Below are positions 11,711 through 29,664 of a DNA stretch of 32,000 nucleotides, piece after piece; within the stretch, counting starts at the first letter, position 1, and each line of letters begins with the position of its first letter. The stretch spans positions 3,180,001 through 3,212,000 of the forward strand of contig NZ_CP011304.1 in NCBI RefSeq assembly GCF_000981785.2. The letters run 5' to 3'. Both the position numbers and the translations under genes were made by a program. Source of the stretch: Microcystis aeruginosa NIES-2549 (GTDB taxonomy: Bacteria; Cyanobacteriota; Cyanobacteriia; Cyanobacteriales; Microcystaceae). The notes under the pieces are model-generated. The model searched no databases. It saw nothing but the letters and a program-made list of their open reading frames with translations, and was not told the origin of the DNA.

Positions 11711-12493
11711 ATGAAAATTAAGAAAAAATTGACAATTATTATGGCTATAGCGACTTTTTTACTGACTATCTCTCCCCTAAGCGCTCAAACTACCGCTAAC
11801 CCCGTCAAGGCTGTAGAATTTTATAATCGGGGGGTGGATCGTTTAACCGCAGGGGATTACTCAGGGGCGATCGCAGATTTTACTCAAGCTCTACAATTAG
11901 AACCGAAGGATGCCGATGCTTACTATAATCGCGGCTATGCGGAATTAGTTCTCGGCCAGTACGAGCGAGCGATCGCAGATTATACCCAGACCTTGACAAT
12001 CAACCCCAATTATGTTAATGCTCTCGGTAATCGTTGTTATGCCTATTATCTGACGAAAAAATACGAGGCAGCGGTGGAAGATTGCACAAAAGCGATCGCT
12101 TTAAACGGAAATTTTGCTGATTTCTTTATTTATCGCGGTAATGCTAAGGATGACTTGGGAAGACACGCAGAAGCGATCGAGGATTACACAAAAGCTTTGA
12201 GTTTACAGGGAACCAGAGGACAGGATCGCATTTTCTATAATCGCGCTCTAGCCTATAACCGAGCCGGACAGCAGGAAATGGCTTTAAGGGACTATGATGA
12301 GAGTCTGAAAATCAATGCTAATTTTGCCGAAGCGTACCACAATCGGGGTTTAACCCATTATAAATTGGGAAACAGGGAAAAAGCGATCGCTGATTTAGAG
12401 GCGGCGGCTCGTCTAGCGTTATCTCAGGGTAAACAGGGGACTGCGGCTAAGTCTCAGTCAGCAGTGGCATTAATTCAGGGTCAAAAGCCTTAA
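11711..12493 (+). CDS. Secreted or periplasmic tetratricopeptide (TPR) repeat protein
   Basis: The ATG at 11711 gives MKIKKKLTIIMAIATFLLTISPLSAQ, a signal peptide. Repeated 34-aa TPR units follow (AIADFTQALQLEPKDADAYYNRG, AIADYTQTLTINPNYVNALGNR, and more). The track ORF starts at an upstream TTG that I consider unlikely. Confidence 0.8.
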   Translation: MKIKKKLTIIMAIATFLLTISPLSAQTTANPVKAVEFYNRGVDRLTAGDYSGAIADFTQALQLEPKDADAYYNRGYAELVLGQYERAIADYTQTLTINPNYVNALGNRCYAYYLTKKYEAAVEDCTKAIALNGNFADFFIYRGNAKDDLGRHAEAIEDYTKALSLQGTRGQDRIFYNRALAYNRAGQQEMALRDYDESLKINANFAEAYHNRGLTHYKLGNREKAIADLEAAARLALSQGKQGTAAKSQSAVALIQGQKP

Positions 12494-12567
12494 AATCGGG
12501 AGTAGTTGTGATATTAGCACTAAATAGGAGTGAAAGAGGCTAAATCGCAACTACGAGGGACTAAATT

Positions 12568-12747
12568 TTAGCCAGCTTGGGATGCGTAAAAAGCGACGGC
12601 TAACAGTCCACCCACAAGTGTGATCGCAGCAACACCCCAGAAAATATAATTACGTTGTTGCGATTTAGTCGGGGGATCCGCTTGATAAACTTTCGGTTCG
12701 GCGGCGAAATTATTTAAGCGTCCACCTTCTTCGTTTGTATAAGGCAT
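12568..12747 (-). CDS. psb34: Small single-helix thylakoid protein, ssl1498/Psb34-like (recognised from memory)
   Basis: MPYTNEEGGRLNNFAAEPKVYQADPP is followed by one C-terminal TM helix (IFWGVAAITLVGGLLAVAFYA). The ATG at 12747..12745 is preceded by GAGG about 8 nt upstream. The track ORF starts 2 codons earlier at a TTG. Confidence 0.55.
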   Translation of the reverse strand: MPYTNEEGGRLNNFAAEPKVYQADPPTKSQQRNYIFWGVAAITLVGGLLAVAFYASQAG

Positions 12748-12830
12748 AATCAAAACCTCAAATATGACAATTTTTCAGGAAAAAGATCCTCTTATTACAA
12801 TAGTACAACATATTAGTAACCGAGTCGGAG

Positions 12831-12953
12831 ATGTGGGAAATTCTCACGGGGATAACAATTCTTAGTCTTGGGGTAACTGCCGGACTCTGCTACTTTTATT
12901 TGCGATCGCAATTTCAAGGATTGAAACTGCGAAAACAACTTAAAAAAGGCTAA
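12831..12953 (+). CDS. Candidate 40-codon single-TM micro-protein (below the ORF-track length cutoff)
   Basis: The ATG at 12831 directly follows GGAG. The translation is MWEILTGITILSLGVTAGLCYFYLRSQFQGLKLRKQLKKG, one hydrophobic helix plus a basic tail. A TACAAT -10-like hexamer lies at 12796-12801. I recognise no family. Confidence 0.3.
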   Translation: MWEILTGITILSLGVTAGLCYFYLRSQFQGLKLRKQLKKG

Positions 12954-13143
12954 TCATACTAAATCCGTTTTTAATACTATGATTAACTCCCAAGTTATGG
13001 ATTGTTTTTCCCTGCTCCCTGATCCAGCGTTCCCCACTCTCCTATACCTTTTAAACAGAATTTAGTATTAGGTGTTGGGATAGGGGGAGGTGGTTGCGTT
13101 AATATTAGTTACTGTATCTAATAACGCCGGAAAAAAACTATAG

Positions 13144-13734
13144 ATGAATTCTCCCTATGCAGATGTCTCTCCTAGTAATTGGTTATCTATCACCCAACGA
13201 CTTGTGGAAAGACATCCCCTATCTACCGATGCAATTGTTGATGTTGTTTTAACATCTTGGCAATCAATTTTTAATTCTCAGTTAGGTACAAAAGGTTTTA
13301 GAATTGGTAGGGATATCTTCCCTAAACCTCAAATTATGGGTTTTCTACTTCATGAATTAATTCCTTTAGAACTAAAAGCAAAATATCCCGATTTCTGGAG
13401 AGGAGATATCAGTATATCTGATAAAGATATTGTCTATATACCTGATGACTTTTTTTCAATTGAAGTCAAAACCTCCTCTGATCCTAGACATATATATGGC
13501 AATAGAAGCTATGCTCAAAATTCTAATAACAGCAAAAAAGGTAAGTCTGGATACTATTTAGCAGTTAACTTTGAGAAGTTTTCTAATACTACTAATCCTC
13601 AGATTAAACTAATTCGTTTCGGTTGGATTGATTCTGGGGATTGGATTGGGCAAAAGGCAGCTACAGGTCAACAATCGCGTCTTTCCTCTGACGTAGAAAA
13701 TTATAAATTGCTCCAATTGTATCGAAAAATCTAG
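13144..13734 (+). CDS. Candidate type II restriction endonuclease (PD-(D/E)xK-like)
   Basis: 196-aa ORF convergent with the adjacent DNA methyltransferase and overlapping it by 4 nt. It has a possible nuclease core DKDIVYIPDDFFSIEVKTSS (D...E-x-K). The region is AT-rich and has no HIP1 site. The call rests on context and a weak motif. Confidence 0.5.
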   Translation: MNSPYADVSPSNWLSITQRLVERHPLSTDAIVDVVLTSWQSIFNSQLGTKGFRIGRDIFPKPQIMGFLLHELIPLELKAKYPDFWRGDISISDKDIVYIPDDFFSIEVKTSSDPRHIYGNRSYAQNSNNSKKGKSGYYLAVNFEKFSNTTNPQIKLIRFGWIDSGDWIGQKAATGQQSRLSSDVENYKLLQLYRKI

Positions 13735-14780
13735 AATAACGAGCCTTGAATATAAGTATTGCTTCTTTCTTTTTTAAATCTTTTAAATCTCTCTGCAGCT
13801 ATCTCGCAATAGTCTGGTCGAATTTCAAAACCCACAAAAATTCTTCCTAATCCCAAGGCCGCTATTCCTGTAGAACAAGAACCAGCAAAGGGATCAAGAA
13901 TTATTTCTACCGGATTAGATGAAGCTTGTATAATTCTCTCGACAATTGCTAAAGGAAATTGTGCGGGATGTCCGGTTCTTTCCTTAGAACTGCGCTTTTC
14001 TCCTGTAGTGACTTTAGGAACTTCCCACACATCAGAAGGATTTTTACCGAGGGGATTACAACGATATTTACCATTTTTCTTTTGATTGGGATACTTAACG
14101 TTAGGGTCACGAATATTATCTAAGTTAAAAGTATATTCTTGGCAATTTTTGAGATAAAAAAGCCATTTTTCATTGCGAGGACTAAGACGATTTTTTGTAG
14201 AAACACCTGCCCCATATTTCCAGACAATTTCTTGTAAAAGATAAAAGGGAGACTTATCCCAAAGAAGATAGGGAATCGGAACACATAATCCCTTTTCTGG
14301 TACTTCTAAATAACCAACATTTAGCCACAAAGCACCGTTATCTTGAGTAATCTGATAAATTTGCCGCAGCCAATTAGCACACCAATCAACATAGTCATTG
14401 ATTGAAAGAACTCGTTCATATTCTTTGCCAATATTATAAGGTGGTGATGTAACAGTGAGGTCAATTTTTATGTCACTATGAGATAGTTTAGACAAAAAGT
14501 CTGTGGCATCTCCTTGATAAAGAATAAAGCCGTTGTCCGAGTAAAAAGGTTGACCAAGATGACTAACCAGAATTTCTTTAAGAAAATTAAATTTGTTGGC
14601 TCTATCTTTTTCTAACTCTGGAGAAAATGGCTGTAGTAAGGAGGAAGGAGCAATCTGAGTTGATTGATGATCAACAATTCCCTCTGCTAGATAAGAGTTT
14701 TGTTCCTTGCTGGCAATTGGACGAGACTCATCTTCCCTAGACGATAGTTTTTTTTGTTTCCGCTGGGACTCTACAACCAT
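13731..14780 (-). CDS. DNA methyltransferase, beta-class N4-cytosine/N6-adenine type (N6_N4_Mtase)
   Basis: 349-aa ORF. Motif IV DLTVTSPPY (SPPY at aa 112-115) precedes motif I ILDPFAGSCSTGIAA (aa ~294-308), the circular permutation typical of beta-class enzymes. The SPPY variant is seen more often in m4C enzymes. Confidence 0.85.
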   Translation of the reverse strand: MVVESQRKQKKLSSREDESRPIASKEQNSYLAEGIVDHQSTQIAPSSLLQPFSPELEKDRANKFNFLKEILVSHLGQPFYSDNGFILYQGDATDFLSKLSHSDIKIDLTVTSPPYNIGKEYERVLSINDYVDWCANWLRQIYQITQDNGALWLNVGYLEVPEKGLCVPIPYLLWDKSPFYLLQEIVWKYGAGVSTKNRLSPRNEKWLFYLKNCQEYTFNLDNIRDPNVKYPNQKKNGKYRCNPLGKNPSDVWEVPKVTTGEKRSSKERTGHPAQFPLAIVERIIQASSNPVEIILDPFAGSCSTGIAALGLGRIFVGFEIRPDYCEIAAERFKRFKKERSNTYIQGSLF

Positions 14781-15016
14781 AATCTCAAAGGACAGGTAAG
14801 TATTTTGATAGTTTTAATTATGCCCTTATTTTAGCAAAATATCACTGGAGTTGTGCTTAATTTAATAACTTTTGTAATCATTCTCCTTCCCTTACCCTGG
14901 ATGGGGGGGGTAAAACCCCACCAAGAGTTAAAGATTGACTGATAAAGCAGCGAGTTTTCCTTGAAAAATCTCAACTGAGTAGATTGATAATTAGGGTATG
15001 CACCCGAAAATTATCC

Positions 15017-16027
15017 CTAAAATGGTGGTAAATAACCCATGGCATTTTTGACTCGATCGAGAGTTTGATTGGCCACCGCTTCTGCTTTGAGACGACCTTG
15101 CCGCAAAACCGTGGCTAAATAATCTTTATCCTCTCTAATTTGAGCGTATTTTTCCTGAATAGGTTTCAGAGATTCTATGGTAACTTCTGTTAACATCGGT
15201 TTAAATTGTCCCCAACCTAAATCGGCACATTCTCCCGCGACCACCTCTTTACTTTTTGCCGATAAAATGCTATAGAGAGTTAATAAATTATGGCATTCGG
15301 GACGCTCCGGATCATCGAAACTTAAACCCTTAACTAGATCGGTTTTACAGCGTTTAATTTTCTTGGCAATGACATCGGGACTATCGAGAATATTAATCCG
15401 ACTCATCTCGGAAGGATCGGATTTAGACATTTTATTCCGGCCATCGGTTAAACTCATCACCCGCGCTCCTTCCTTGCGGATCATCGGATCAGGAAGTTTT
15501 AAAATTGGTTGTTTCGGTTGTCCAAAAAGATGATTAATTCTAACGGCTATATCGCGGGTTAATTCTAAATGTTGTTTTTGATCTTCTCCCACGGGTACTT
15601 TATCGGCATCGTAGAGTAGGATATCGGCAGCCATCAGTACGGGATAATCGAGTAAACCTGTGCCAACATTTTCCCCCTGTTTAATCGCTTTTTCTTTAAA
15701 TTGAATCATATCGGTTAACCAATTTAAAGGGGTGATACAATTCAATAACCAAGTTAATTCCGTATGGGCCTTAACGTGGGATTGGACAAAGATAGTCGCA
15801 TATTCTAAATCAATTCCGCAGGCTAAATATAAAGCGGCAATTGCTAAAGTATCCTCCGCAAGAGTGGCGGGATTATGGGGAACGGTGATCGCGTGTAAAT
15901 CGACCACACAAAAGAAATTATCGTAGTCTTTTTGTCCCTCCACCCAATTGCGGATCGCACCGAGATAATTGCCTAAATGTAAATTGCCGGTTGGTTGCAC
16001 ACCAGATAAGATTCTTTGTTTACCCAT
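15017..16027 (-). CDS. trpS: Tryptophan--tRNA ligase
   Basis: It has a HIGH-type motif (QPTGNLHLGNYLG) and KMSKS. I prefer the second ATG (16027..16025, MGKQRILSGVQPTG) because AGGAG sits immediately upstream of it. The track ORF starts 8 codons earlier at 16051. Confidence 0.95.
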   Translation of the reverse strand: MGKQRILSGVQPTGNLHLGNYLGAIRNWVEGQKDYDNFFCVVDLHAITVPHNPATLAEDTLAIAALYLACGIDLEYATIFVQSHVKAHTELTWLLNCITPLNWLTDMIQFKEKAIKQGENVGTGLLDYPVLMAADILLYDADKVPVGEDQKQHLELTRDIAVRINHLFGQPKQPILKLPDPMIRKEGARVMSLTDGRNKMSKSDPSEMSRINILDSPDVIAKKIKRCKTDLVKGLSFDDPERPECHNLLTLYSILSAKSKEVVAGECADLGWGQFKPMLTEVTIESLKPIQEKYAQIREDKDYLATVLRQGRLKAEAVANQTLDRVKNAMGYLPPF

Positions 16028-16087
16028 AACTCCTGCGATCGCTTTTTTCATGATTTTATTGTATCAGTTTTTGCCGCTAATTTCATC

Positions 16088-17401
16088 CTAAATCCAATTG
16101 GGAAAAATCATTCTCAGATAATAATCCAGCACTGACAGGGGAATGCCTAAATAAATTGGTAGCCAATGGATAAAAGCAAAAATTATCAAAATTATCAGCA
16201 AGCGCGAGACATTTTTATAAATAGGAGTGGAACTTTCTAAACCATCGGCTAACAGCCAAGCTAGAGCAATCCAAGTGAAGCTATAGGCAGCCATATAATG
16301 ATAGAGAAAGGTACAGCGACCAATTTTTAACCAGGGCAGCAGATTGGCAATATAGTTACAGATAAGATAGGCGGAAATTACTCGCTCTTTTCGGTTAAAT
16401 AATCGACTAAAAACCACTAGAATCGCTCCCGTAGAAAACCACCACAAAAACGGATTTCCCATAGCGTGAACATCATAAATTTTATCACCTAATCTCTCAA
16501 AATAATAAGCCACAGGTCGCCCCATTACTAACCAACTATACCAGGGAGAACAATAGGGATGAACATCAGATTGATTACCTTTTATTCTCTGATGAAATGA
16601 CCAAATTTCCTGATGTACTTGCCAAAAATTATATTGATGGTTGACGAGAAGATGCGGTATCCACAGCAAACTATAGGTGACTAGGGGAAAGACAATTAAG
16701 GCGATAAAAATGTCCTCTAATCTCAGGTTAGTTGCCTTTGTCCAAAGATTATCTTTTGACTGCTCTTGATTCAATAATTTTATTAACCAAGCAATACCGA
16801 TAAAAATAAATATTCCTAGTAAAAATCCTAAGCCATTCCATTTAATATTTGCCGCTAAACCGAAAGAAACTCCTGATAATAATAGCCAATTGAGTTTCTG
16901 ATTTTTCTGGAGTGCTAATAAAAAAAATAATTGTCCAGACAAACCGAATAAAATTAAGTAAATATTATTGAGAGCATAGCGGGATTCCACCAGAAATAAT
17001 CCGTCTAAACTAGCGAGGAAAGTTGTGATTAAAAATACAGTTTTTCTCTGGGTTAATTGATAAGCAATTCCCCCAATAATTAGGGGAATAAAAGAACCAG
17101 TCAAAGCATTTAACCAGCGATAACTAAAAGTTGAGCGCAGGGAACCTGTTAAATTATTAATGGTTTCAGGATCGGCAGGAAAATGGGAACCAATCCAGAT
17201 ACTAATAGCAATTAAATATTGACTTAACGGTGGATGAGACTGGAAAAAATCTTTACCGATTAGATATTCATTGCCGTATTTAGCATAATAAACTTCATCG
17301 AAAACAAGTGTATTAAATTGACTGAGATTCCAGAATCTTATTGCCAGAGAAAATAAAAATATCCCTAGGATAGATAGGTTAAATTTTACTTGAGAATTCA
17401 T
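16088..17401 (-). CDS. GT39/PMT-type (ArnT-like) membrane glycosyltransferase dependent on a lipid-linked sugar donor
   Basis: 437-aa polytopic membrane ORF. The loop-1 motif VFDEVYYAKYG (DE motif) is typical of dolichyl/polyprenyl-phosphate-mannose protein mannosyltransferase-like enzymes. Confidence 0.75.
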   Translation of the reverse strand: MNSQVKFNLSILGIFLFSLAIRFWNLSQFNTLVFDEVYYAKYGNEYLIGKDFFQSHPPLSQYLIAISIWIGSHFPADPETINNLTGSLRSTFSYRWLNALTGSFIPLIIGGIAYQLTQRKTVFLITTFLASLDGLFLVESRYALNNIYLILFGLSGQLFFLLALQKNQKLNWLLLSGVSFGLAANIKWNGLGFLLGIFIFIGIAWLIKLLNQEQSKDNLWTKATNLRLEDIFIALIVFPLVTYSLLWIPHLLVNHQYNFWQVHQEIWSFHQRIKGNQSDVHPYCSPWYSWLVMGRPVAYYFERLGDKIYDVHAMGNPFLWWFSTGAILVVFSRLFNRKERVISAYLICNYIANLLPWLKIGRCTFLYHYMAAYSFTWIALAWLLADGLESSTPIYKNVSRLLIILIIFAFIHWLPIYLGIPLSVLDYYLRMIFPNWI

Positions 17402-17417
17402 GGAAAAATAATAGTTA

Positions 17418-18044
17418 TTATAACTGGGAATTTTCTGTTAAACGCGAGCGAAATTCTTTGACGGCAAGACGGGGATTAGGATGGTTAACATATTCGGCTA
17501 ATAATTCTAAATTTAAATCTGGTAATAAAGCACTTTTAGGGATTAAAATATATTCGCCATTCTCTTGCAAAGAATAGATTTTTAACTGATTATCTTGCCA
17601 AAACCAAACCTCTTGAGTTCCCAATCTTTTATAAACTTCTAAAACTTTCAGGCTGCCACTGGTTAAGATTATTTCTATCGCCAAATCAGGAAACTCTTTT
17701 TCTGTAAATAAACAAAAACATTCATCTGGTTCTTTTCCCGCTTCTTTTTCCTGTTTTCGCAAAGTGGTGGAACCTAATCCCCAGAAATCAATTTCAGCAT
17801 ATTCTAAATAAACTTCTACCAATCTACCGATATTTTTTTTGCTAACTTCGTGACGACGACTAGGAGCCATAATTTCTACCATTCCATCTAAGTAAGTAAT
17901 GCGATAACTGGAACTATCTTCTAAATGTTTTAAGAGGGTTTCGTACTGTTGCCAATTAACCCCAGAAATTAACATTCTTTGTTCAGGATCATTAGCTTTT
18001 AACTCGAAATCTTCTAATCCTTGTAACAGAATCGTAGTCATCAT
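17418..18044 (-). CDS. Uma2 family (DUF820) PD-(D/E)xK nuclease-fold protein
   Basis: 208-aa ORF with family blocks NWQQYETLLKHL, RITYLDGMVEIMAPSRRHE, EPDECFCLF, PDLAIEIILTS and GTQEVWFW. Confidence 0.8.
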   Translation of the reverse strand: MMTTILLQGLEDFELKANDPEQRMLISGVNWQQYETLLKHLEDSSSYRITYLDGMVEIMAPSRRHEVSKKNIGRLVEVYLEYAEIDFWGLGSTTLRKQEKEAGKEPDECFCLFTEKEFPDLAIEIILTSGSLKVLEVYKRLGTQEVWFWQDNQLKIYSLQENGEYILIPKSALLPDLNLELLAEYVNHPNPRLAVKEFRSRLTENSQL

Positions 18045-18078
18045 ACAATTAATTACCTCATCTATCTTACTTAATTAC

Positions 18079-20151
18079 TCAGGAAGACTTATTTTGATTT
18101 CTTCTGGCGTTAATTTTAGCGCGTAAAATCCTCACTTTATAGGGATCAGCATCTTTTCGCCACAGTATCTGATAGCCTTTGATTGTAGCACAATTCTCCT
18201 CTAAACATTTTTGCCAACCCTGTAAACGTTCGATCGCTTTTCTATCCTCTAACAATCCCCAATCCTTTTCTAATTGAGTTAAGCGAACCAATTTATCATA
18301 GTTAGGATAATCCGCCGTTACTAAAAGCTCTTTTTCGTGTAGAATTGGCGGATTAGGACTATCCCGATAATCGCGAAAACTAAAATCAGCCGAACCTAAA
18401 TATACATCCATGCTAGTGGCTAAAATCGGATGAATTTCTGTATCAAAATTGGGGTAATAGAGATAGGAAATTTTGGGTTGACGAAAGGATAAACGAATAA
18501 CGTTAGCATTTTCTAACCGTCCGATAGTTTGACTAGCACAACCTTCATATAAGCGTAATAACATCGGTAATTTTTCCAGAATGCTAATATGAATAGTTAG
18601 GGAATAACGGGAAAGTTTGCCTAGAGAACTATTTTCACAAGTACGAGCGATTGCTGGCAAATTTCCCGCACTTATTAACACTTCTTCTGCTAAAGCGCAA
18701 GCATTGCGATAACTGCCAAATAAAGCTTTAAAATCGGCACGGGTAGCGGGGGATAATTCCCGTACTTTCGGACATTGGCTAAATTGACTTAAAGCTAAAT
18801 AAAGTAAAAGATCTGCGCGTCTTTTATCGGCAATTATCTCCCATTCTTCCCCTTCTGTTACTTGTAAAATCACTTGAAAAGCTCGTCTAAAAGTCCCAAA
18901 TTCTGCCTTAATTTCTTCCTCTTGTAATAATTCTCCTGCAACGGGTAAACGTCCTTGTTGGGTGTAAAATTCCATCAGGGGAGTTAATAAATCTTCGTAA
19001 TCTTCAAAGCGTTTGAGATGGGTTTTAATTTTAGGAGTGGCAGTGCGGGAACGACATCTCGATAAACGAAAAGTTTCGGCTTTTTCTTCCTCTCGAAAAA
19101 CTAGATAAATTCCCAAAGTTATTGGAATAGAATCAACTCCTAAACTGCTATCAATATACTGTTTTAGCTCTTCCTGTTGATAGTATTTTTGAAAGGTATT
19201 GCGACGGGTTATAATTCCATCTTCATAAGCCATTAAACCCCGTTCGCTATCATCAATTAAAATCTGTGCCGAAACAATTAAAACTTGACGGGTTAATTGC
19301 CAAGCTTTTAATAAAGCTTCCTGCCGTTCTTCGGCGGATTCAATAACATTAATTACATAGCCTAAATTAACAATATCAGATTCAATTAAAGGACTATCGG
19401 GACGATAATAAGGATCCCAACCTTCACTTTGATAACCCTGTTCAGCTATGCGTTCTATATCACCTCCATAACCACAACCGTAATCAAAAAAAGTGGTTTC
19501 AGGAAGAAATAATCCCGCCGCTAATGCTAATCTTGTCGGACGAGAAAGGGTTTTGCGAACAAGAGCGGCTTTGTGGCGATCAATTATTATCGATTTTTCC
19601 TTTTGTCCCTCTAAATTACAAACTAAATAATCTCCTGCAAAATCAAGGTGATGCTTTCTTAAAAGCCGTTGCCATTCCTGTTTAGTACCGATGGGATAAG
19701 AACTATTTAAAAGTCCTAAAGCACTCTCGATTTTTGTGAGATGATCGAATTGTTCATAAAGAGGATAGTCCCTAGTAACAAAAGTTTCTTTTCGGTGTAA
19801 AATGGGCGGATTATCAGCATTTTGATAATTCCATTCACTTAAGATTAATGTCCCCAAATCTACCACTAAACTTTTAGTTAAAACTGGGTGAGGTTCCCGA
19901 TCAAAATCGGGATAAAAAAGATAGGATATTTTCGGTTTATCGGTGCTAAATTTAATTATTGTTGCCTCAGATAAATGCTGATTAATTCTTGCTTGTTGTT
20001 CGTAATTCTGGAGAATAGGATCAAGTTGATGTAATGCTTCTCGATGAACATAAAGCGCCCCCGGTAATAGTTTACCGATGGGACTAACTTGACACAGTTG
20101 CACGATTAAGGTGAAATTATCAGCCATGGCAATTAATCTGTCTAATGACAA
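18079..20151 (-). CDS. Large SAM-dependent methyltransferase-like protein; resembles the 'DNA phosphorothioation-associated putative methyltransferase' family; contains an internally duplicated flanking module
   Basis: 690-aa ORF from a TTG at 20151; the first ATG at 20127 would give 682 aa. Class-I methyltransferase motif I is FFDYGCGYGGD (aa 221-230), followed by DIVNLGYVINVIE. Aa 74-148 and 560-634 are about 52 percent identical to each other. The family name is from memory and is not verified. Confidence 0.6.
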   Translation of the reverse strand: MSLDRLIAMADNFTLIVQLCQVSPIGKLLPGALYVHREALHQLDPILQNYEQQARINQHLSEATIIKFSTDKPKISYLFYPDFDREPHPVLTKSLVVDLGTLILSEWNYQNADNPPILHRKETFVTRDYPLYEQFDHLTKIESALGLLNSSYPIGTKQEWQRLLRKHHLDFAGDYLVCNLEGQKEKSIIIDRHKAALVRKTLSRPTRLALAAGLFLPETTFFDYGCGYGGDIERIAEQGYQSEGWDPYYRPDSPLIESDIVNLGYVINVIESAEERQEALLKAWQLTRQVLIVSAQILIDDSERGLMAYEDGIITRRNTFQKYYQQEELKQYIDSSLGVDSIPITLGIYLVFREEEKAETFRLSRCRSRTATPKIKTHLKRFEDYEDLLTPLMEFYTQQGRLPVAGELLQEEEIKAEFGTFRRAFQVILQVTEGEEWEIIADKRRADLLLYLALSQFSQCPKVRELSPATRADFKALFGSYRNACALAEEVLISAGNLPAIARTCENSSLGKLSRYSLTIHISILEKLPMLLRLYEGCASQTIGRLENANVIRLSFRQPKISYLYYPNFDTEIHPILATSMDVYLGSADFSFRDYRDSPNPPILHEKELLVTADYPNYDKLVRLTQLEKDWGLLEDRKAIERLQGWQKCLEENCATIKGYQILWRKDADPYKVRILRAKINARRNQNKSS

Positions 20152-20170
20152 ATTCTAGAGACAGAAAAAA

Positions 20171-20950
20171 CTAAATAAATCTAGTTAAATGAACCCGATA
20201 GCGCTCTTTTTTTGTCACAGTCACCTCACCCACTTCTAAACGACCTTTTCCCCGAAAAGAAATCAAATCACCGGTTTTAACGTTATAACTAGATTGACTG
20301 ATATCTTTCCAGTTAACTCGCACATCCCCAGCACTAATTGCCTCGGCCATTTTACTGCGAGAAATGCCAAAACCCGCCGAGGCAATCGCATCCAAACGTA
20401 AGGAAGCTTCCACAGTATTAATTTCTTTTTTTTGCGGTGGTCTAACTTTTAATTCCGTCAAAGGAATCGGGCTAGTTTTCACGGGAACCGAACGCACTTG
20501 TAGTAAATTAGCACATAAAAAATCTGCCAATTCAGGCACTACAATCGCCTGCGCTCCTCGCTCACCTAAAACGATTATATCGCCGACTTTTTCCCGGACG
20601 ATCCCTGTCCCCAACATTGCCCCTAAAAAATCCCGGTGGTTAGCGGTATCAAAAAGAAAATTACCGGCAATATCAAGGGCAGATAGGGGAATATCTGTTT
20701 CTGCCAAAGGTAAATCAACTCTAGCAATACCGATGCGCTGTCTTTCTGCTTGGGGATAACCGCCCCATTTCTGCATTGACACATCGGTTAAACGCTGAAA
20801 AACCCGTTCTACTTCCGCCAAAACCGCAGGAGAAAGAAAGTCTGTCACCGTCACTTCCCAAGTCTTAATCGCTTGTTCGGCTTTATCAATAACTTTCGCT
20901 ATGTCCTCGCGGTTTTCAACACCCTTTAGTAATTCTTCTCTTGGTAACAT
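20171..20950 (-). CDS. S4 RNA-binding-domain protein, YlmH-like / cyanobacterial 'photosystem II S4 domain protein' type
   Basis: The ATG at 20950..20948 (MLPREELLKG) gives 259 aa; the track ORF starts at an upstream TTG. The WGGYPQAERQRI block and the C-terminal S4-like segment RLDAIASAGFGISRSKMAEAISAGDVRVNWK fit the family. Confidence 0.65.
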   Translation of the reverse strand: MLPREELLKGVENREDIAKVIDKAEQAIKTWEVTVTDFLSPAVLAEVERVFQRLTDVSMQKWGGYPQAERQRIGIARVDLPLAETDIPLSALDIAGNFLFDTANHRDFLGAMLGTGIVREKVGDIIVLGERGAQAIVVPELADFLCANLLQVRSVPVKTSPIPLTELKVRPPQKKEINTVEASLRLDAIASAGFGISRSKMAEAISAGDVRVNWKDISQSSYNVKTGDLISFRGKGRLEVGEVTVTKKERYRVHLTRFI

Positions 20951-21021
20951 TGTTTTCTGGTAATTAATCAAAACTTCTTAGGAAAAAATCAGATGAACCA
21001 TAACTTATTCCCGATAACCGT

Positions 21022-21531
21022 TCACCGTTCTAGGGCGTATCCTTGCAGATTTTCGGGGTTAAATTGACGGAGGATAAGAGTCGCTTGATTTTTCAGGTTT
21101 TCCGAACCCTGCACGATAATAATATATTTTCCGGCACCGAGACGATTGCGATAGGGAAGTGCATCACCACTGCCGGACGATAAACCCACACCACCACCGA
21201 CGAAAATACTGCCCATCGCCCCCCCAATCGCCCCGGCAATACCGCCGACGATATGATTGCCCGGTTCTCCGGCCCAATCAAAGGTATGCAACCCCGTAAT
21301 CAGGTTAAAAAGGTAGCCACCGGCAAAACCGAAGGGAATTAGCCAAAAAGCCATGAGAGTGGCCCGTTTTTTGGCCTGTTGAAAGGGATCGATCAAACCG
21401 AACTCATCGGCACTTTTATAGCCGCGACCGAGAATGGTCACTTGAGATTGGGGAATTCCCGCCTTTTCCAGGGCAACGGAAGCTTCTTCTGCTTGTATGC
21501 GATCAGCTAACACGGCAATGAGATAATTCAT
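21022..21531 (-). CDS. Hypothetical membrane protein with glycine-zipper segments
   Basis: The ATG at 21531..21529 is preceded by GGAG (ttGGAGaatATG); the track ORF starts 3 codons earlier at a TTG. A soluble N-terminal domain is followed by hydrophobic Gly-rich stretches (FGFAGGYLFNLITG, GGIAGAIGGAMGSIFVGGGVGL). Confidence 0.5.
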   Translation of the reverse strand: MNYLIAVLADRIQAEEASVALEKAGIPQSQVTILGRGYKSADEFGLIDPFQQAKKRATLMAFWLIPFGFAGGYLFNLITGLHTFDWAGEPGNHIVGGIAGAIGGAMGSIFVGGGVGLSSGSGDALPYRNRLGAGKYIIIVQGSENLKNQATLILRQFNPENLQGYALER

Positions 21532-22119
21532 ATTCTCCAACTTTTTAGGCTATCTTCATCTCCTATTGTAAGGATTTTGGGGACTGAAAAGCCGCTCGAT
21601 CGAGAAAATATTCAAGGGGATGCGTTAGTCAATCTTAGATAGGATTGATTAATGTGGAATTATTAGCAATTCAAGAAATTGCTCTATCTTAGTTATTTCT
21701 GGTACTACTTGACCATAAAGATCGAGGAAGATAGTCGAATTATCATTATTAACAAGAAGTTTTTCGGGATTATTACCATTGGGATTAGACTGTAAAGTTT
21801 GACTCACTCCTGTCATTATTTGAATGTTTTTATCGGCTACATCTGAGTTAAAAACTAAAAAATAGATTAGATTTTTGTTAATAATAGCTAGTCTTAATAA
21901 ATCCACTTGTCCGCCAATTAAATTTATGAGAAAAAAGAGAAATAAATACCGCAGTTCTAGCCTTCTCTTATCGACCTATACCAATTTAGATGCGCGGCAG
22001 CTTATTAGTTAAAACCGACTTGACTGCTGAAATAAGGAATTGATTCCCTGACTGAAGATTGACTTCTCTCTTGTGTTTAGTTGTGGCGCTGGGATCCCTA
22101 ACCATTGTATCATGGAAAA

Positions 22120-23151
22120 ATGCGAAGACTCACAATCACTCGACCCGACGACTGGCACCTTCATCTCCGCGACGGTGCGGCACTGAAAGCGGTTCTACCC
22201 CATACGGTGCGTCAGTTTGCCCGTGCCATTATCATGCCAAATTTAAAGCCCCCAGTGCGCTCGGTGGCCGATGCCGCCTCCTACCGCGAGCGCATTCTGG
22301 CAGCAGTTCCAGAGGGTCAACAGTTCGAGCCACTGATGACACTATATCTCACCGATAATACCAGTCCCGAAGAAATCATGGCGGCGAAAGCCTCCCAGTT
22401 TGTCAAAGCGGTGAAATACTACCCAGCCGGTGCCACCACTAATTCCGACTTGGGGGTGACGGACCTTCGTCGGTGCGATCGCGTTTTGGCAGCGATGGAG
22501 CAGGTAGATATGCCGCTACTACTGCACGGAGAAGTCACCGATGGTGATATTGATGTGTTCGATCGAGAGAAAGTGTTCATTGAGAAGCACTTGCTCCCAC
22601 TGATAACAAGATTTCCGAAACTGCGCGTCGTCTTTGAACACATTACCACTGCCGATGCGGTCAACTTTGTTCTATCTGCTAACAACAACGTCGCCGCCAC
22701 AATTACGCCCCAACATTTATTGTTTAGCCGAAACATTCTCTTTACCGGGGGCATTCGTCCCCATTTTTATTGCCTGCCGATTTTGAAACGAGAGGATCAT
22801 CGTTTGGCACTTTTGCAAGCGGCAACATCGGGCAATCCCAAGTTTTTTCTAGGGACCGATAGTGCGCCCCATTCTCGCTACAGCAAGGAAAGTTCCTGTG
22901 GCTGCGCGGGTTGTTATTCGGCTCTGCACGCCCTAGAGTTGTACGCAGAAGCTTTTGAGAGTGTCGATGCAATTGAGCAACTGGAAGGGTTCGCCAGCTT
23001 CCACGGTCCAGATTTCTATCAACTCCCCCGAAATACGGAACAAATCACCTTAACCAAAACCCCTTGGCGCATTCCCGATGAATTGCCATTTCCCGAATCC
23101 GGACTGGTGCCGTTACGAGCGGGTGAAGAGATAAGCTGGCAATTAGGGTAA
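22120..23151 (+). CDS. pyrC: Dihydroorotase, homodimeric (E. coli PyrC) type
   Basis: The [19 protein letters not shown] opening (metal-binding HxH), the carbamylated-Lys context and LGTDSAPH are typical of class II dihydroorotase. I prefer the ATG at 22120 over the TTG at 22105. Confidence 0.9.
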
Positions 23152-23193
23152 TAAAAACCGCCAGTCTTAGCTTACCTAAAATGTTTGTGGTTT

Positions 23194-24489
23194 TTATGCT
23201 CCCGTCTTATTTTGATAATAATCGCGGGTTCCCTTGGCATCTAGGGCCTCACCGAGACGAGTAATAGCCTGGGCGTAGGCGGCGTTACGCAGAGATATAT
23301 CGAACTCCTGGGCGAAAGACCAGACTTTTTCCGCTTCTGTCACCATTCTTTCTTTTAAGCGCTCATTGATCTCGTTTAATCGCCAATAAAGACCGCTGCG
23401 ATTTTGCACCCATTCAAAATAACTCACCGTTACCCCACCGGCGTTAACTAGAATATCGGGGAAAACGAGAATCCCTTTTGATTCTAAAATGCGATCGGCT
23501 TCTGAGGTAGTCGGACCATTGGCCACTTCAAAGATATATTTTGCCCGCACGCGATCGGCATTTTCGGCGGTAATTTGGTTTTCTAGGGCGGCTGGAATCA
23601 AAATATCTACATCTAGGGCTAATAATTCTTCATTACTAATCGCCTCGTGTTCTACGATATTACACACAGTACCCTCACAGTAAATAGCAGTAATTCCGCG
23701 ATGTTCCTGTTTATAATCACGAATGCTGGCAATATCTAGGCCTTTTTCCCGATAAATGCCGCCCTGGGAATCACTTACCGCCACCACTTGATAACCGGCT
23801 TTGGCGAGGAGATCCGCCACTACGGCCCCAGCGTTACCGAATCCTTGGACGGCTACGGTAGTATTAGCGGGTTTTTTGTCTAATTTCGGCAAAAGAGAAT
23901 GGATGACATGAAAAGCACCCGTTCCCGTCGCCGTATCGCGGCCGCGACTGCCTCCCATGGTTAAAGGTTTCCCCGTCACCACCGCCGGACTAATTTTACG
24001 CTGAATGATGCTGTACTGGTCCATCATCCAACCCATGATCATCTCGTTGGTATAGACATCGGGGGCAAGAATATCGACATCGGGACCGATAAAGTCGGCT
24101 ATACCCTCGATATAACCCCGGCTAAGGCGTTCTAACTCGGCTTTTGACAATTCTTTCGGATTGAGGGTAATGCCGCCCTTAGCCCCACCAAAGGGCAAAT
24201 CCAGCAGGGCGCATTTAAAGGTCATCCAAAAGGCTAGGGACTGCACCTCATCGATGTTGACGTTGGGATGATAGCGCACACCTCCCTTGCCAGGGCCACG
24301 GGTGTCATCGTAGCGGACGCGGTAGCCTTGGAAGATTCTTAAAGTGCCGTTGTCCATACGGACGGGTATGGAGACGCTGAGACTAGCTTTGGGATATTTT
24401 AACCGCTCGATCGCATCATCGGAAATGGAGACATACTTAAGGGCCCGTTCTAGGCGACTGCTGGCATCGGTAAAGAGTGATTTCGACAT
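23194..24489 (-). CDS. gdhA: Glutamate dehydrogenase (Glu/Leu/Phe/Val dehydrogenase family)
   Basis: It has the catalytic-Lys block PFGGAKGGI, GPGKGGVRYHP, and a Rossmann segment VAVQGFGNAGAV. I prefer the ATG at 24489..24487 (MSKSLFTD), which is preceded by GAGGA. The track ORF begins 9 codons earlier at 24516. Confidence 0.9.
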   Translation of the reverse strand: MSKSLFTDASSRLERALKYVSISDDAIERLKYPKASLSVSIPVRMDNGTLRIFQGYRVRYDDTRGPGKGGVRYHPNVNIDEVQSLAFWMTFKCALLDLPFGGAKGGITLNPKELSKAELERLSRGYIEGIADFIGPDVDILAPDVYTNEMIMGWMMDQYSIIQRKISPAVVTGKPLTMGGSRGRDTATGTGAFHVIHSLLPKLDKKPANTTVAVQGFGNAGAVVADLLAKAGYQVVAVSDSQGGIYREKGLDIASIRDYKQEHRGITAIYCEGTVCNIVEHEAISNEELLALDVDILIPAALENQITAENADRVRAKYIFEVANGPTTSEADRILESKGILVFPDILVNAGGVTVSYFEWVQNRSGLYWRLNEINERLKERMVTEAEKVWSFAQEFDISLRNAAYAQAITRLGEALDAKGTRDYYQNKTGA

Positions 24490-24533
24490 GATTTTTTTTC
24501 CTCTATCTATCCCCATTAGAACAGGTCAAAACC

Positions 24534-24547
24534 GTATATTTTGCTAC
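24534..24547. promoter_or_regulatory. NtcA-type palindrome GTA-N8-TAC upstream of gdhA
   Basis: GTATATTTTGCTAC matches the GTAN8TAC core exactly. It lies 45 nt upstream of the preferred gdhA ATG. No clean TAN3T -10 box sits at the canonical 22-nt spacing. Confidence 0.3.
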
Positions 24548-24624
24548 AGTTTATTTTTCTTAATTAACCATAGACAAGAATTGCCGACAAGTGTTCTCAA
24601 ACAAGGTTACTGTCGGGGTTAACT

Positions 24625-25767
24625 TCAGTTGCGAGAAAAGAGGCTTGACCCGGGAGGATAGCATCGGCTTTCCGAGTTATATTCTAGATTAAGAGGCAAA
24701 TAAACGGTAAAAGTTGTGCCTTGATCTAGCTGAGAATCGACAGTAATTTTTCCTCGATGTTTTTCAATAATTTGACGGGAAAGATATAATCCTAAACCGC
24801 TGCTAACGCAACGTTGGTGGTTAGTCGGAAAGATATCAAATAGGCAAATTTTTTCTTCTTCAGTAATACCGATTCCCGTATCAGTAACGGTAAAAATTAA
24901 CTGTTTTAATTCCCGATCATCTATACTCAAACTAACATTGACTGAGCCACTATCGGTAAATTTAATCGCATTAGTGATCAGATTCGTGGCCATGCGTCGC
25001 AATTCTAATTTATCTCCCATGAGAGTATATTTTGCCTTGGCAGCCCAGAGAAAATCAAGGGGTAAATGTTTCTCGTCCGCTAGGGGTTGCAATTCCCGAA
25101 TCACTTCCAGAATAATTGCCGGTAAATCCACTTCTGTGTAATCAAGGGTTTTGCGATCGGCTTCGTAGAGATAAACTTCCAGTAAATTATTAACCATCTG
25201 CAATAAATTGCGATTATTGCGGGTCATGGCATCGATAACTTCTAGCAAGTTTTCCGATAATTCTCCTAAGACACCCTGCTGCATTAAGCTAAACATTCTT
25301 TCGGCCGCCACTAGCGGTGTTCTTAAATCGTGGGTGAGACGGGAGACAAAATCCTCACGAATGCGAACCATCTGTTCCCGTTCATCGATACTATGTTTTA
25401 ACTGGAGCAGCGATCGCACTCTGGCGATTAATTCACCGATATGGAGGGGTTTACGGATAAAATCATCGACTCCTAGCGCTAAACCCTTGATCACACTAGC
25501 TTGATCGTCGGTTGAAATTAACAGGATCGGGATATAAGGTAAGTTGCTATCTTGACGGATTTTTTGGGTGAGTTGGTACCCATCGATCTCCGGCATCATC
25601 ACATCGAGTAAAATCAGGTGAGGAGGGGAAATTCTGATTTTTTCCAGAGCTAACACCCCATTATTGGCTTTAATGATCTCAAATCCCTGACTTTGTAAAA
25701 TGGCATCGATGAGTGAGAGATTTTCTGGCACATCATCCACCACGAGGACGCGAGCGCTTAATTCCAT
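24625..25767 (-). CDS. Hybrid two-component protein: N-terminal receiver domain fused to a histidine kinase core (HisKA + HATPase_c)
   Basis: The REC domain shows VLVVDDVPENL, LLDVMMPEIDGY and RKP. The H-box is SRLTHDLRTPL, the N-box NLITNAIKFT, and the G-boxes DTGIGI and GLGLYLS. No transmembrane segment is present. Confidence 0.9.
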   Translation of the reverse strand: MELSARVLVVDDVPENLSLIDAILQSQGFEIIKANNGVLALEKIRISPPHLILLDVMMPEIDGYQLTQKIRQDSNLPYIPILLISTDDQASVIKGLALGVDDFIRKPLHIGELIARVRSLLQLKHSIDEREQMVRIREDFVSRLTHDLRTPLVAAERMFSLMQQGVLGELSENLLEVIDAMTRNNRNLLQMVNNLLEVYLYEADRKTLDYTEVDLPAIILEVIRELQPLADEKHLPLDFLWAAKAKYTLMGDKLELRRMATNLITNAIKFTDSGSVNVSLSIDDRELKQLIFTVTDTGIGITEEEKICLFDIFPTNHQRCVSSGLGLYLSRQIIEKHRGKITVDSQLDQGTTFTVYLPLNLEYNSESRCYPPGSSLFSRN

Positions 25768-25830
25768 TTAATTTTAATGCCAACGATACTATGACGGCAT
25801 TTCTCGTCAAGATAAAGTGTAACCTAAAAA

Positions 25831-25943
25831 GTGCAAGGGTTTTCAGACTTGCGGTAGTTATAACCTTGCACTTGTTTGGGAAAAAAGGGCTTAAAACCGT
25901 TAACCGCACTGAATTCTACTTTTATTCAGCCAACCCTAAATAG
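25831..25943. repeat. Degenerate ~112-bp repeat unit A, with an internal 8-bp inverted repeat and a terminal 21-mer
   Basis: gtgcaagg (25831-25838) pairs with ccttgcac (25864-25871). The unit ends in ttattcagccaaccctaaata (25923-25943), which recurs exactly at 26140-26160. A 9-bp hairpin gccaaccct/agggttggc spans 25929-25950. Confidence 0.7.
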
Positions 25944-25958
25944 GGTTGGCGGCAAAAA

Positions 25959-26030
25959 GTAGGGGCGAAGCATTCGGATAGAAAATCTACGGTTTCACCG
26001 ATAGGTTATGCCCGAATGCTTCGCCCCTAC
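25959..26030. repeat. Perfect 19-bp inverted repeat element (MITE/REP-like palindromic unit)
   Basis: gtaggggcgaagcattcgg (25959-25977) is the exact reverse complement of ccgaatgcttcgcccctac (26012-26030), with a 34-nt spacer. The element sits between repeat units A and B. Confidence 0.8.
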
Positions 26031-26049
26031 AGGACGTGAGCCGATGAAG

Positions 26050-26160
26050 ATGCAAGATTTTGAACCAAGATTCTCTCAAAATCTTGCACCTGTTTCGCCA
26101 GAAAAGCCACAAAACCCCTATCCTGCCTACATTTCACATTTATTCAGCCAACCCTAAATA
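26050..26160. repeat. Degenerate ~112-bp repeat unit B
   Basis: It has the same architecture as unit A: an 11-bp inverted repeat tgcaagatttt/aaaatcttgca (26051-26061 / 26078-26088), then cttgcacctgttt..., ending in the identical 21-mer ttattcagccaaccctaaata (26140-26160). Confidence 0.7.
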
Positions 26161-26163
26161 AAT

Positions 26164-26196
26164 CACAGAACCGATGATCCTATCATCGGTTCTGTG
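26164..26196 (-). terminator. Second stem-loop downstream of the S8 protease gene (15-bp perfect stem, 3-nt loop)
   Basis: cacagaaccgatgat-cct-atcatcggttctgtg. On the minus strand it is followed by ATTTATTT. Confidence 0.45.
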
Positions 26197-26219
26197 AACT
26201 CGTTGACGGAAAATGGAAA

Positions 26220-26248
26220 TCAGGCATCAGCGAAAAGCTGATGCCTGA
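26220..26248 (-). terminator. Rho-independent-type terminator of the S8 protease gene
   Basis: tcaggcatcagc-gaaaa-gctgatgcctga forms a 12-bp perfect stem. It lies 36 nt past the minus-strand stop (26284-26286). On the minus strand it is followed by TTTCCATTTTCC. Confidence 0.6.
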
Positions 26249-26283
26249 AGATAAGATATCTGAGTCCGAAAAACAGCTAAGTT

Positions 26284-28098: not shown

Positions 28099-28295
28099 GG
28101 TGTTCCGGTCGTTTTTTAGTGGTTAGATGGCTGAGAAAACAATCAAGAATATCTGATCACAAAGGCAATATTGGCCAGCTTTTGGGTAAGCATCCAAAAG
28201 GTTAGCGCAATTTAAATCTGGATTCCACCACACTCTGATCCTATTCCAGAGAATACCTTGAATGGGGTTCGATAGTCAAGATATTTTCGGGGACG

Positions 28296-28335
28296 TATGA
28301 ATTACAAATTCTGAATTAGGAAGTGGGTAGTGGGG
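28296..28335. repeat. Direct repeat copy 1 (tatgaattacaaattctgaattaggaagtgggtagtgggg)
   Basis: It matches the copy at 28619-28666 apart from small indels and substitutions. Confidence 0.7.
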
Positions 28336-28466
28336 TGATAAAATTATGAATCATAAGTTATAATGGACATTCCGCACATCTTCCTATACTTTTATATATT
28401 TTTACATTACCCAAGATATTTTGACGAAAAACCTTGATTGTAGAAACCACTATTGAGAACATTTTC

Positions 28467-28503
28467 AATAATTGATTTTTTCTCTCAGAAAAAATCAATT
28501 ATT
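28467..28503. repeat. Perfect 15-bp A/T-rich inverted repeat with a 7-nt loop
   Basis: aataattgatttttt (28467-28481) - ctctcag - aaaaaatcaattatt (28489-28503). Confidence 0.85.
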
Positions 28504-29623: not shown

Positions 29624-29664
29624 TTCTGGCTTTGTCCGACCGATTAGCAGATTTTTGGCTGAAA

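Follow-up and report, generated by a model that had tools for sequence, protein, structure and literature searches.

A TIGR04096-family putative methyltransferase and its Uma2 neighbor at a conserved locus of Microcystis aeruginosa

The two genes and the TIGR04096 family

In this study, we analyzed a 32,000-nucleotide stretch of the genome of Microcystis aeruginosa NIES-2549 (NCBI RefSeq assembly GCF_000981785.2, contig NZ_CP011304.1, positions 3,180,001 to 3,212,000 of the forward strand; hereafter the window), which carries a gene for a 690-aa putative methyltransferase (MT) and, next to it, a gene for a 208-aa Uma2-family protein. An earlier note, made from the sequence alone, had reported two co-directional open reading frames (ORFs) on the minus strand that are 34 nt apart, and these exist as claimed (18079-20151 and 17418-18044). 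The two genes and the parts of the MT, including its S-adenosylmethionine (SAM)-dependent domain, are as follows.

18079..20151, minus strand: 690-aa MT ORF, TIGR04096 long form (TTG start; TIGR04096 match)
19606..20151, minus strand: domain X, N-terminal copy (aa 1-182), alpha/beta (internal duplication)
19057..19566, minus strand: class-I (Rossmann) SAM-dependent methyltransferase domain, about aa 196-365 (invariant SAM motifs, Foldseek)
18667..19056, minus strand: all-helical middle region, about aa 366-495 (secondary structure of the AlphaFold2 (AF2) model; weak PF18780 matches in relatives)
18082..18666, minus strand: second copy of domain X (C-terminal, about aa 496-690), within the TIGR04096 core (model pLDDT 91.6)
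17418..18044, minus strand: Uma2-family PD-(D/E)xK-fold protein, 208 aa, PDC-S17 type (PF05685, PADLOC)

The 690-aa protein matched the NCBIfam model TIGR04096 at 870.9 bits (cut-off 150 bits), with profile positions 2-478 of 478 covering residues 190-665, and a second TIGR04096 stretch matched its N-terminal duplicate. The 208-aa protein matched the Pfam Uma2 model (PF05685) at 59.7 bits (cut-off 27 bits) over profile positions 1-160 of 172. Thus, the hmmscan proposed in the earlier note placed both proteins above the cut-offs, and both of its assignments, the name 'DNA phosphorothioation-associated putative methyltransferase' and the Uma2/DUF820 call, were right. TIGRFAMs/NCBIfam already list the family by this name, which the gene also carries in the annotation of Microcystis genomes. 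No match to the 690-aa protein was obtained in either the Pfam or the PADLOC scan. Translation probably starts at the ATG at 20127 instead, because homologs and orthologs in NCBI are annotated with the resulting length of 682 aa; the Microcystis orthologs form a cluster (90% identity) of 576 members with this length.

TIGR04096 is a large family (>3,500 clusters at 50% identity) that comprises short forms of ~480 aa with a single domain X, long forms with two X domains and others of 850-1020 aa. The architecture of the Microcystis protein, for which the AF2 model had a pLDDT of 87.5, is domain X, a class-I SAM-binding methyltransferase fold, a helical region and a second domain X.

The methyltransferase domain

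The MT domain contains motif I (FDYGCGYGGD) and motif II (GWDP), with DIVNLGYVINVIE following strand 4; both FFDYGCGYGGD and DIVNLGYVINVIE, which had been pointed out before, are present in the protein. Conservation was scored over 66 family members with 28-64% identity. Residues D223, G225, C226, G227, D231, D246, P247 and N268 were invariant in these members, all motif I and II residues are present here, and the family-wide motif I pattern FDYGCGxGxD and the acidic motif II GWDP were invariant down to 28% identity. Therefore, the SAM site is maintained across the family, unlike the DAM domain of DndH, which is eroded (PMC10853773). When the gene was compared with those of two other Microcystis strains (L001 and L007 in our numbering of loci), dN/dS was 0.07-0.19. 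The intact SAM motifs together with this low ratio argue for an active and selected MT protein.

A Foldseek search against the PDB retrieved NmbA (9ri2), Trm9 (5cm2), glycine-sarcosine MTase (GSMT; 5him), CmoA (4iwn) and Hen1 (4xrp) by weak matches (best E 2e-4, TM to target <=0.5, 10-17% identity) over ~200 of the 690 residues. The top 50 PDB matches were small-molecule, tRNA, RNA or peptide MTases, with no DNA MTase among them. Relatives of the protein also gave weak matches to Pfam Methyltransf_23, and the post-strand-4 segment appears to resemble the UbiG/Methyltransf_11/23 pattern. Motif IV, (D/N/S)PP(Y/F/W), is absent from the position after strand 4, where the 690-aa protein has DIVNLGYVINVIE; a search of the protein for the C5 motifs (PCQ/ENV) revealed none, and no Pfam DNA-methylase family matched it. 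Both NPPILH motifs are located in the non-Rossmann X domains rather than in the MTase domain.

The methylome of Synechocystis 6803, determined by single-molecule real-time (SMRT) and bisulfite sequencing, contains five methylated motifs, each of which was assigned to another enzyme, five in all (PMC6105098). Plasmid pSYSM of this organism encodes a 48%-identical MT homolog (WP_011153563.1). This methylome provides indirect evidence that the family may write no classical base-methylation motif.

Domain X and the helical middle region

The two copies of domain X arose from an internal duplication, in which aa 4-173 and aa 489-659 align with 39% identity (E 3e-35). Motifs common to both are SYLxYP(D/N)F...HP, NPP(I/V)LHxK(E/D), GLL and W; the N-terminal copy, which the ~480-aa short forms lack, has KISYLxYPDFDxxPHP and NPPILH(R/E)KE and is connected to the MTase domain by a linker (aa 183-195) that is disordered in the AF2 model. 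Modelled alone (aa 484-690), domain X was predicted with a pLDDT of 91.6. A Foldseek search of this model against the PDB found no structural relative (best E 0.23, TM <=0.22), and an HMM (hidden Markov model) of the whole family, when compared with PDB sequences, found SAM motif I only. In BFVD, a stretch of one unnamed viral protein of 1232 aa was the sole significant match (E 4e-6). A sulfur-binding domain (ScoMcrA SBD) or a nuclease fold was considered for domain X and rejected, as the Foldseek comparison with the PDB was empty (best E 0.23).

In relatives, the helical segment 'GRLP...FG..RRAFQ' weakly matched the homing-endonuclease-associated repeat (PF18780), which is helix-turn-helix (HTH)-like; matches were located at equivalent positions in P0043, P0212, P0005, P0134 and P0155 (E 2e-6 to 2e-3). 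The helical middle region is thus a putative DNA-binding module.

The forms of ~1,000 aa found in Oscillatoriales (L039 1490-4495, L050 9893-12904, L066, L077 and L041; P0005, P0043 and P0078) are extended at the N-terminus by ~300 aa. In P0043, the extension gave faint matches to Rsm22 (methyltransferase) and HNH_repeat, and it may be a partial second MTase-HTH unit. These ~1,000-aa forms are also those that most often adjoin dndCDE.

Association with phosphorothioation genes

The genomic context of the family was analyzed in the 80 best genomic loci encoding relatives of the 690-aa protein (49-96% identity). Record titles of 79 loci were cyanobacterial or unclassified; the exception is a metagenome-assembled genome (MAG) labelled Tatlockia (L015), which we take to be misbinned. 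Neighbor families were identified by unbiased clustering of neighbors and by family scans, and Dnd and Ssp genes were sought with HMMs built from verified DndC/D/E and SspB/C/D neighbors. Verified neighbors of the MT gene included DndC (TIGR03183, 697 bits), DndD (TIGR03185, 674 bits) and DndE (PF08870), as well as SspB/DUF4007 (368 bits), SspC (1301 bits) and SspD (374 bits). Genes for phosphorothioation (PT) were present near the MT gene in 25 of the 80 loci (31%), namely 10 Dnd loci, 13 Ssp loci and 2 in which only a DndC-like gene was present. Three other loci (L021, L023 and L031) were withdrawn as Dnd loci, their 'DndD' scoring 141-171 bits vs the TIGR03185 cut-off of 246 bits.

The same association was observed in individual replicons. 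In Pseudoalteromonas shioyasakiensis, the genes MT (QWV06574.1), dndB, dndC, dndD and dndE follow each other in one direction. A Rhodobacteraceae SC52 plasmid carries sspD-C-B facing a cysteine desulfurase gene and MT, plasmid A of Trichormus variabilis ATCC 29413 has MT (WP_011316602.1) beside sspBCD, and Ssp genes adjoin MT in Pseudanabaena pPg_05. The family name is justified, since its recurrent partners are PT genes in both cyanobacterial loci and independently annotated plasmids, and the PT link spans three different PT-type modules. No PT gene was found near MT on a Picosynechococcus plasmid (CRISPR/toxin-antitoxin (TA)/HNH island) or a Massilia plasmid.

Several additional arrangements were observed around MT genes. 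On pSYSM of Synechocystis PCC 6803 (L087/L090, record 17880-30168), an apparently disrupted Ssp cluster lies near MT: DUF4007/SspB is followed by a 563-aa ORF and then by LAGLIDADG and HNH genes (possibly a split or intein-invaded SspC), and farther along are TA pairs, a cysteine desulfurase, an AAA ATPase with DUF4276, DUF433, the TIGR04096 gene and a small HNH gene. On Azospirillum p3 (L093), Methylobacterium pVL1_1 (L098) and Methylibium RPME01 (L089), genes for a phosphoadenosine phosphosulfate (PAPS) reductase, two hypothetical proteins, an FtsK/SpoIIIE protein (~1,780 aa) and MT form a recurrent proteobacterial plasmid operon in which gene ends overlap. This operon may represent a third PT-like or capture-type system that uses a TIGR04096 protein. 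In L031, an Oscillatoriales MAG (12176-14341 and 16771-18183), MT is followed by a fusion of a phospholipase D (PLD) nuclease and a superfamily 2 (SF2) helicase (ResIII, Helicase_C, PLDc_2), a DndD-like ATPase, an HSDR_N-like protein and Uma2, an arrangement that resembles a defense island.

The commonest single immediate neighbor of MT was a convergent gene, here called c2, for a highly conserved Cys/His-rich protein of ~190 aa. It was present in 20 of the 80 loci, with or without PT genes (including L003 10087-10671, L050 13569-14147, L012, L015, L019, L020, L065, L069 and L085), spans cyanobacterial orders and is absent from the window. Its invariant residues include Cys17, Cys19, Cys71, Cys113, Cys120, His100 and His156, and no relatives of it were found in Pfam, NCBIfam, PADLOC or PDB sequences. 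A resemblance of c2 to a LAS/peptidase-M15-like motif was considered and given up.

Dnd homologs elsewhere in Microcystis

When the DndC/D/E and SspB/C/D HMMs were run over the window, no match was obtained, which bears out the earlier statement that the 32 kb hold no PT gene. The description of the MT as an orphan stands in this local sense only. In M. aeruginosa PCC 7806, DndC (by a DGQHR/DndB-like gene), a DndD homolog with DndA, and DndE have been reported on three contigs (PMC2442094, supplement 9), that is, dndC, dndE and a dndD-like gene are scattered in this genome. The Microcystis MT is therefore an orphan only locally, the dnd homologs being themselves unlinked in the genus.

The Microcystis DndD-like protein is an SMC/Rad50-type ATPase of ~690 aa with a cluster of 490 members, and its gene stands alone amid housekeeping genes (L091 9124-11196). 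This type of ATPase is widespread in Chroococcales, where it scored 141-171 bits vs 246, and many genomes were common to its match list and that of MT. In Crocosphaera-like genomes it adjoins the MT homolog; its positions include L021 6800-8869, L023 6780-8849 and L031 14696-16774.

The Uma2 gene and its pairing with MT

The 208-aa protein also matched the PADLOC candidate PDC-S17 (E 6.7e-80, 265 bits). We know of no demonstrated defense function for PDC-S17. Residues P106-D107 and E124 align to columns that are 92-100% conserved in 27 Uma2 sequences, a comparison that covered the PD...E residues. The dN/dS of the gene vs other Microcystis was 0.11-0.24.

Uma2 genes in the 80 MT loci were located with an iterated HMM. 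Uma2 was the immediate neighbor of MT in 8 of 80 loci, that is, 8 of 152 adjacent genes vs 15 of 967 other flank genes (odds ratio (OR) 3.5, p=0.008), and the Pfam Uma2 model likewise identified 8 when applied to 150 of these 152 adjacent genes. Once two pairs of close loci were collapsed, six adjacency events were left (OR 2.6, p=0.051). The neighborhood co-occurrence that the earlier note had suggested checking was therefore present as an enrichment among all loci and became borderline after collapsing related ones. No BLAST-detectable similarity was observed between the Microcystis Uma2 (PDC-S17 type) and the Uma2s adjoining MT elsewhere, which belong to at least three further lineages (<=30% identity; PDC-S03 type also seen) and lie upstream or downstream of MT on either strand. 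Since MT-adjacent Uma2s come from at least four unrelated lineages, they do not represent a co-inherited pair. Uma2 genes also occur inside the PT/MT clusters of L050, L079 and Pseudanabaena pPg_05 (annotated Uma2).

Thus, the MT-Uma2 adjacency is recurrent but weak and polyphyletic, and the pairing in Microcystis looks largely incidental rather than a restriction-modification (R-M) unit. Such a pattern would be expected if abundant cyanobacterial Uma2 paralogs settle preferentially in variable or defense-type neighborhoods. The caveat made earlier, that the adjacency could be coincidental given the many Uma2 paralogs, is largely borne out by these polyphyletic Uma2s on either side of MT.

Conservation of the locus in Microcystis

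The genes flanking MT and Uma2, and an R-M pair nearby, are as follows.

13144-13734, plus strand: ScaI-family restriction endonuclease (PF09569, 246 bits)
13731-14780, minus strand: N6_N4 DNA methylase (PF01555, 192 bits)
15017-16051, minus strand: trpS (tRNA-synt_1b annotation from L001)
16088-17401, minus strand: PMT-family glycosyltransferase (Pfam PMT, PMT_4TMC)
20171..20971, minus strand: Sll1252-family photosystem II (PSII) S4-domain protein (TIGR03069, 364 bits)
21022-21540, minus strand: 172-aa glycine-rich ORF (GC 0.50; no Pfam/NCBIfam match)

The locus was compared with three other Microcystis assemblies (L001, L002 and L007), giving four sequences with the window. The gene order trpS-PMT-Uma2-MT-S4-pyrC was colinear in all three, with 96-97% identity and no indel. 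Thus, the comparison of the trpS/S4 locus among Microcystis, which had been proposed as a check, revealed no difference in presence or absence, and the idea of a horizontally acquired block was contradicted. Window 15010-23168 (trpS to a dihydroorotase-like gene) is one colinear block (96.2%) in Microcystis sp. LE19-131.1A and a second Microcystis contig; in Microcystis sp. LSC13-02, 96.9% identity was observed over window 13728-21622. The 172-aa ORF, which lies between S4 and the dihydroorotase-like gene, is kept in all Microcystis loci examined. Against L001 and L007, dS was 0.10-0.13 for MT, 0.06-0.08 for Uma2 and 0.08-0.12 for S4 and PMT, and dN/dS was 0.07-0.24 for the four genes alike, a pattern that indicates common inheritance of MT, Uma2, S4 and PMT under purifying selection.

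Composition had been the reason for viewing these genes as an AT-rich block. The GC content of MT (0.376) and Uma2 (0.343) is indeed below the window mean of 0.422, but that of PMT (0.351) and other window genes (0.29-0.38) is equally low; GC at third codon positions (GC3) is 0.26-0.27 in the block. Similarly, the block has no HIP1 site, as had been noticed, but the stretch devoid of HIP1 (16043-22474) extends beyond it, and such a gap occurred in 28% of random placements of 18 sites (P=0.28). The intergenic gaps S4-MT, MT-Uma2, Uma2-PMT and PMT-trpS are 19, 34, 16 and 36 nt, respectively; the 34-nt gap between MT and Uma2 is unremarkable, because all five genes from S4 to trpS are spaced by 16-36 nt. 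Scanning for promoters and terminators as operon boundaries gave no signal above shuffled controls. The tRNA and Rfam scans of the window found nothing, and neither flanking repeats at the block nor a mobility gene or integrase were found. A phage origin was rejected, as tblastn against 50,697 phage records gave only one partial match. Because the block is colinear without indel, has neighbor-like dS and dN/dS and is associated with no tRNA, repeat or mobility gene, we conclude from these comparisons that it is not a genomic island and that MT is an old, fixed chromosomal gene in Microcystis.

The real strain-variable defense element here is an ordinary ScaI-like R-M pair at 13144-14780. Its endonuclease and methylase genes are convergent with a 4-nt overlap and constitute a complete type II pair. 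Both are missing (window 12955-15009) in Microcystis LE19-131.1A and one Logan contig, whereas Microcystis sp. LSC13-02 has kept the methylase and lacks the endonuclease (window 12984-13727).

Possible role of the protein and alternative explanations

On balance, we lean to the explanation that the 690-aa gene is a vertically inherited and selectively maintained TIGR04096 copy, and that the family is an accessory component of PT systems. The HTH-like middle region would bind DNA, as would the two X domains, whose duplicate copies might form a pseudo-dimer on a site that is two-fold symmetric or double-stranded; the short form would dimerize instead. SAM may serve the protein in modifying or sensing a target connected with PT-marked DNA rather than in writing a classical m6A/m4C/m5C motif, and in Microcystis the protein could act in trans with the dnd homologs dispersed around the chromosome. 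The Uma2 gene would then be one of many cyanobacterial paralogs settling at locus edges, at most a loosely coupled stand-alone nuclease and not a cognate restriction partner. Any specific PT-coupled chemistry is rated much less probable than the accessory role as a whole. A more specific version, to which we give only a minor chance, is that TIGR04096 proteins are an unrecognized partner of the PT systems of cyanobacteria and perhaps other phyla, often together with c2 and sometimes Uma2, with X as a new DNA- or PT-recognition fold. The SAM domain would then either couple SAM sensing to PT status or carry out an as yet undescribed PT-coupled chemistry, such as methylating PT sites, their nucleophilic sulfur included, or positions beside them; the Microcystis copy would act in trans on a dispersed dnd set. 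Dnd systems of cyanobacteria have been reported to lack DndFGH and any restriction partner, so the TIGR04096 family is a reasonable candidate for the missing component (PMC8569181).

Several observations weigh against an accessory role in PT. About two thirds of the loci, this one included, have no PT gene within 10 kb and lie amid housekeeping genes, so that a cellular role independent of PT is possible. The 'DndD' widespread in Microcystis, itself solitary, scores 141 bits vs the cut-off of 246 and qualifies only as DndD-like, and in the search for DndC homologs the best 120 matches listed were from other genera (>=70% identity), with no Microcystis among the matches listed. The PF18780 matches behind the HTH-like assignment are at or below the Pfam gathering score. 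The argument from Synechocystis is indirect, and SMRT plus bisulfite would overlook unusual modifications; we infer the substrate of MT, and even its catalytic activity. The Uma2 adjacency is nominally enriched (p=0.008 with related loci uncollapsed), and some functional coupling of the two genes is therefore possible. Finally, a literature search for TIGR04096 or 'phosphorothioation-associated methyltransferase' returned as its sole match a passing mention in a genome annotation.

It might also be proposed that MT has a housekeeping function unrelated to PT, methylating a small molecule, tRNA/rRNA or protein, and that its dnd/ssp neighborhoods reflect secondary recruitment or annotation lore. 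Its structural neighbors (NmbA, Trm9, GSMT, CmoA and Hen1) and the UbiG/Methyltransf_11/23-type motif after strand 4 agree with such a role, as do the 55 of 80 loci, that of Microcystis too, in which it lies amid housekeeping genes (S4/PSII, PMT and trpS) and the rough agreement of sequence identity with taxonomy (96% in Microcystis, ~60% in other Chroococcales and 50-55% in Oscillatoriales). We consider this rather unlikely, however, as the link to three PT-type modules across Cyanobacteriota and Alpha-, Beta- and Gammaproteobacteria, often in one co-directional operon with overlapping or nearly overlapping genes, would hardly arise by chance; the family also occurs frequently on plasmids and in CRISPR/TA/HNH defense islands, and the middle region is HTH-like.

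The earlier note had instead favored a two-gene R-M-like or defense module, in which MT would mark self DNA and Uma2 would cut unmarked DNA. Such a module is suggested by the co-directional genes and 34-nt gap, by the PDC-S17 match and the retained PD...E residues, by the rank of Uma2 as the most frequent Pfam-annotated immediate neighbor bar genus-specific synteny (8/150; OR 3.5, p=0.008), and by the Uma2 genes inside the PT/MT clusters of L050, L079 and pPg_05. On the other hand, 90% of the cyanobacterial MT loci have no adjacent Uma2 (8 of 80 do), the adjacent Uma2s come from at least four lineages (<=30% identity; PDC-S17 vs PDC-S03 type) on either side and strand (collapsed p=0.051), MT has neither a DNA base-methylase motif nor such a fold match, and all genes from S4 to trpS are 16-36 nt apart. 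A true pair would also be expected to co-vary like the ScaI-like pair 3 kb away, whereas MT and Uma2 are fixed in the four Microcystis sequences. The module is thus improbable, and the proposal did not hold up. Even less credence is given to a recently acquired genomic or defense island, which we regard as very improbable: the GC content (0.34-0.38 vs 0.42), the GC3 of 0.26-0.27 and the lack of HIP1 inside the block would fit it, but the block is colinear without indel in four Microcystis sequences, its dS is like that of its neighbors, low GC is common to PMT and other genes, the HIP1 gap has P=0.28, and no tRNA, integrase or flanking repeat was found.

To our knowledge, no natural modification of the DNA backbone other than PT has been described. 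Cyanobacteria have been proposed as the cradle of PT, with no PT-dependent partner identified there (PMC8569181). Here, a large family whose SAM site is intact accompanies three PT-type modules across phyla and includes a confidently predicted domain (X) without a solved structural relative; it is named in databases and absent from the searchable literature, in which we found no characterization of the family, its Ssp or PAPS-reductase/FtsK link, the duplicated fold-unassigned domain or the c2 partner. The survey reappraising PT does not treat TIGR04096 either (PMC10853773). The PT link is directly testable, because Synechocystis PCC 6803, which is genetically tractable, carries a homolog on pSYSM. 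For this window, our results suggest that the flagged MT-Uma2 pair is neither a novel R-M system nor an island.

Comparison with known systems

The Microcystis protein shares the Rossmann SAM fold and a Methyltransf_11/23-like motif pattern with class-I small-molecule, tRNA and RNA MTases, which have no counterpart to its X domains or helical region. DNA methylases of type II R-M systems and orphan ones of cyanobacteria (for example, the N6_N4 MTase at 13731-14780 and M.Ssp6803I-V) are likewise SAM-dependent, and MT is, like them, putatively DNA-associated; as in the orphan methylases, its gene has no adjacent cognate endonuclease of known type. In contrast to DNA methylases, it has no motif IV, C5 motifs or Pfam methylase match, and M.Ssp6803I-V suffice for all Synechocystis motifs, so that the MT homolog is not required there.

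The PT-dependent partners DndFGH, PbeABCD, SspE and SspFGH occupy the same place as the MT family, directly adjoining dndBCDE or sspABCD. They have no sequence or domain homology to MT, which in turn has no recognizable nuclease or NTPase domain and no PADLOC match; within DndFGH, DndH has an eroded DAM domain, vs the intact SAM-binding site of MT (PMC10853773). Stand-alone genes with a restriction-endonuclease fold border Dnd loci and have been proposed as back-up or suicide effectors (PMC10853773). The Uma2 neighbor in Microcystis fits that pattern, although the paper does not mention Uma2 and PT genes are absent from the Microcystis locus.

The closest comparison is with the PT-adjacent TIGR04096 members (QWV06574.1, WP_011316602.1 and WP_011153563.1). 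The Microcystis copy differs from them in having no PT gene in 32 kb and in its position in a string of housekeeping genes, and some relatives have extra N-terminal modules (~850-1020 aa) or lack the N-terminal X (~480 aa). Identity to the Microcystis protein is 48-55% for the cyanobacterial plasmid copies and ~30% for the proteobacterial ones. All of these PT-adjacent members match the same model over its full length and have the same SAM motifs and TFQKYY segment, and the cyanobacterial ones share with the Microcystis protein the same long form with two X domains.

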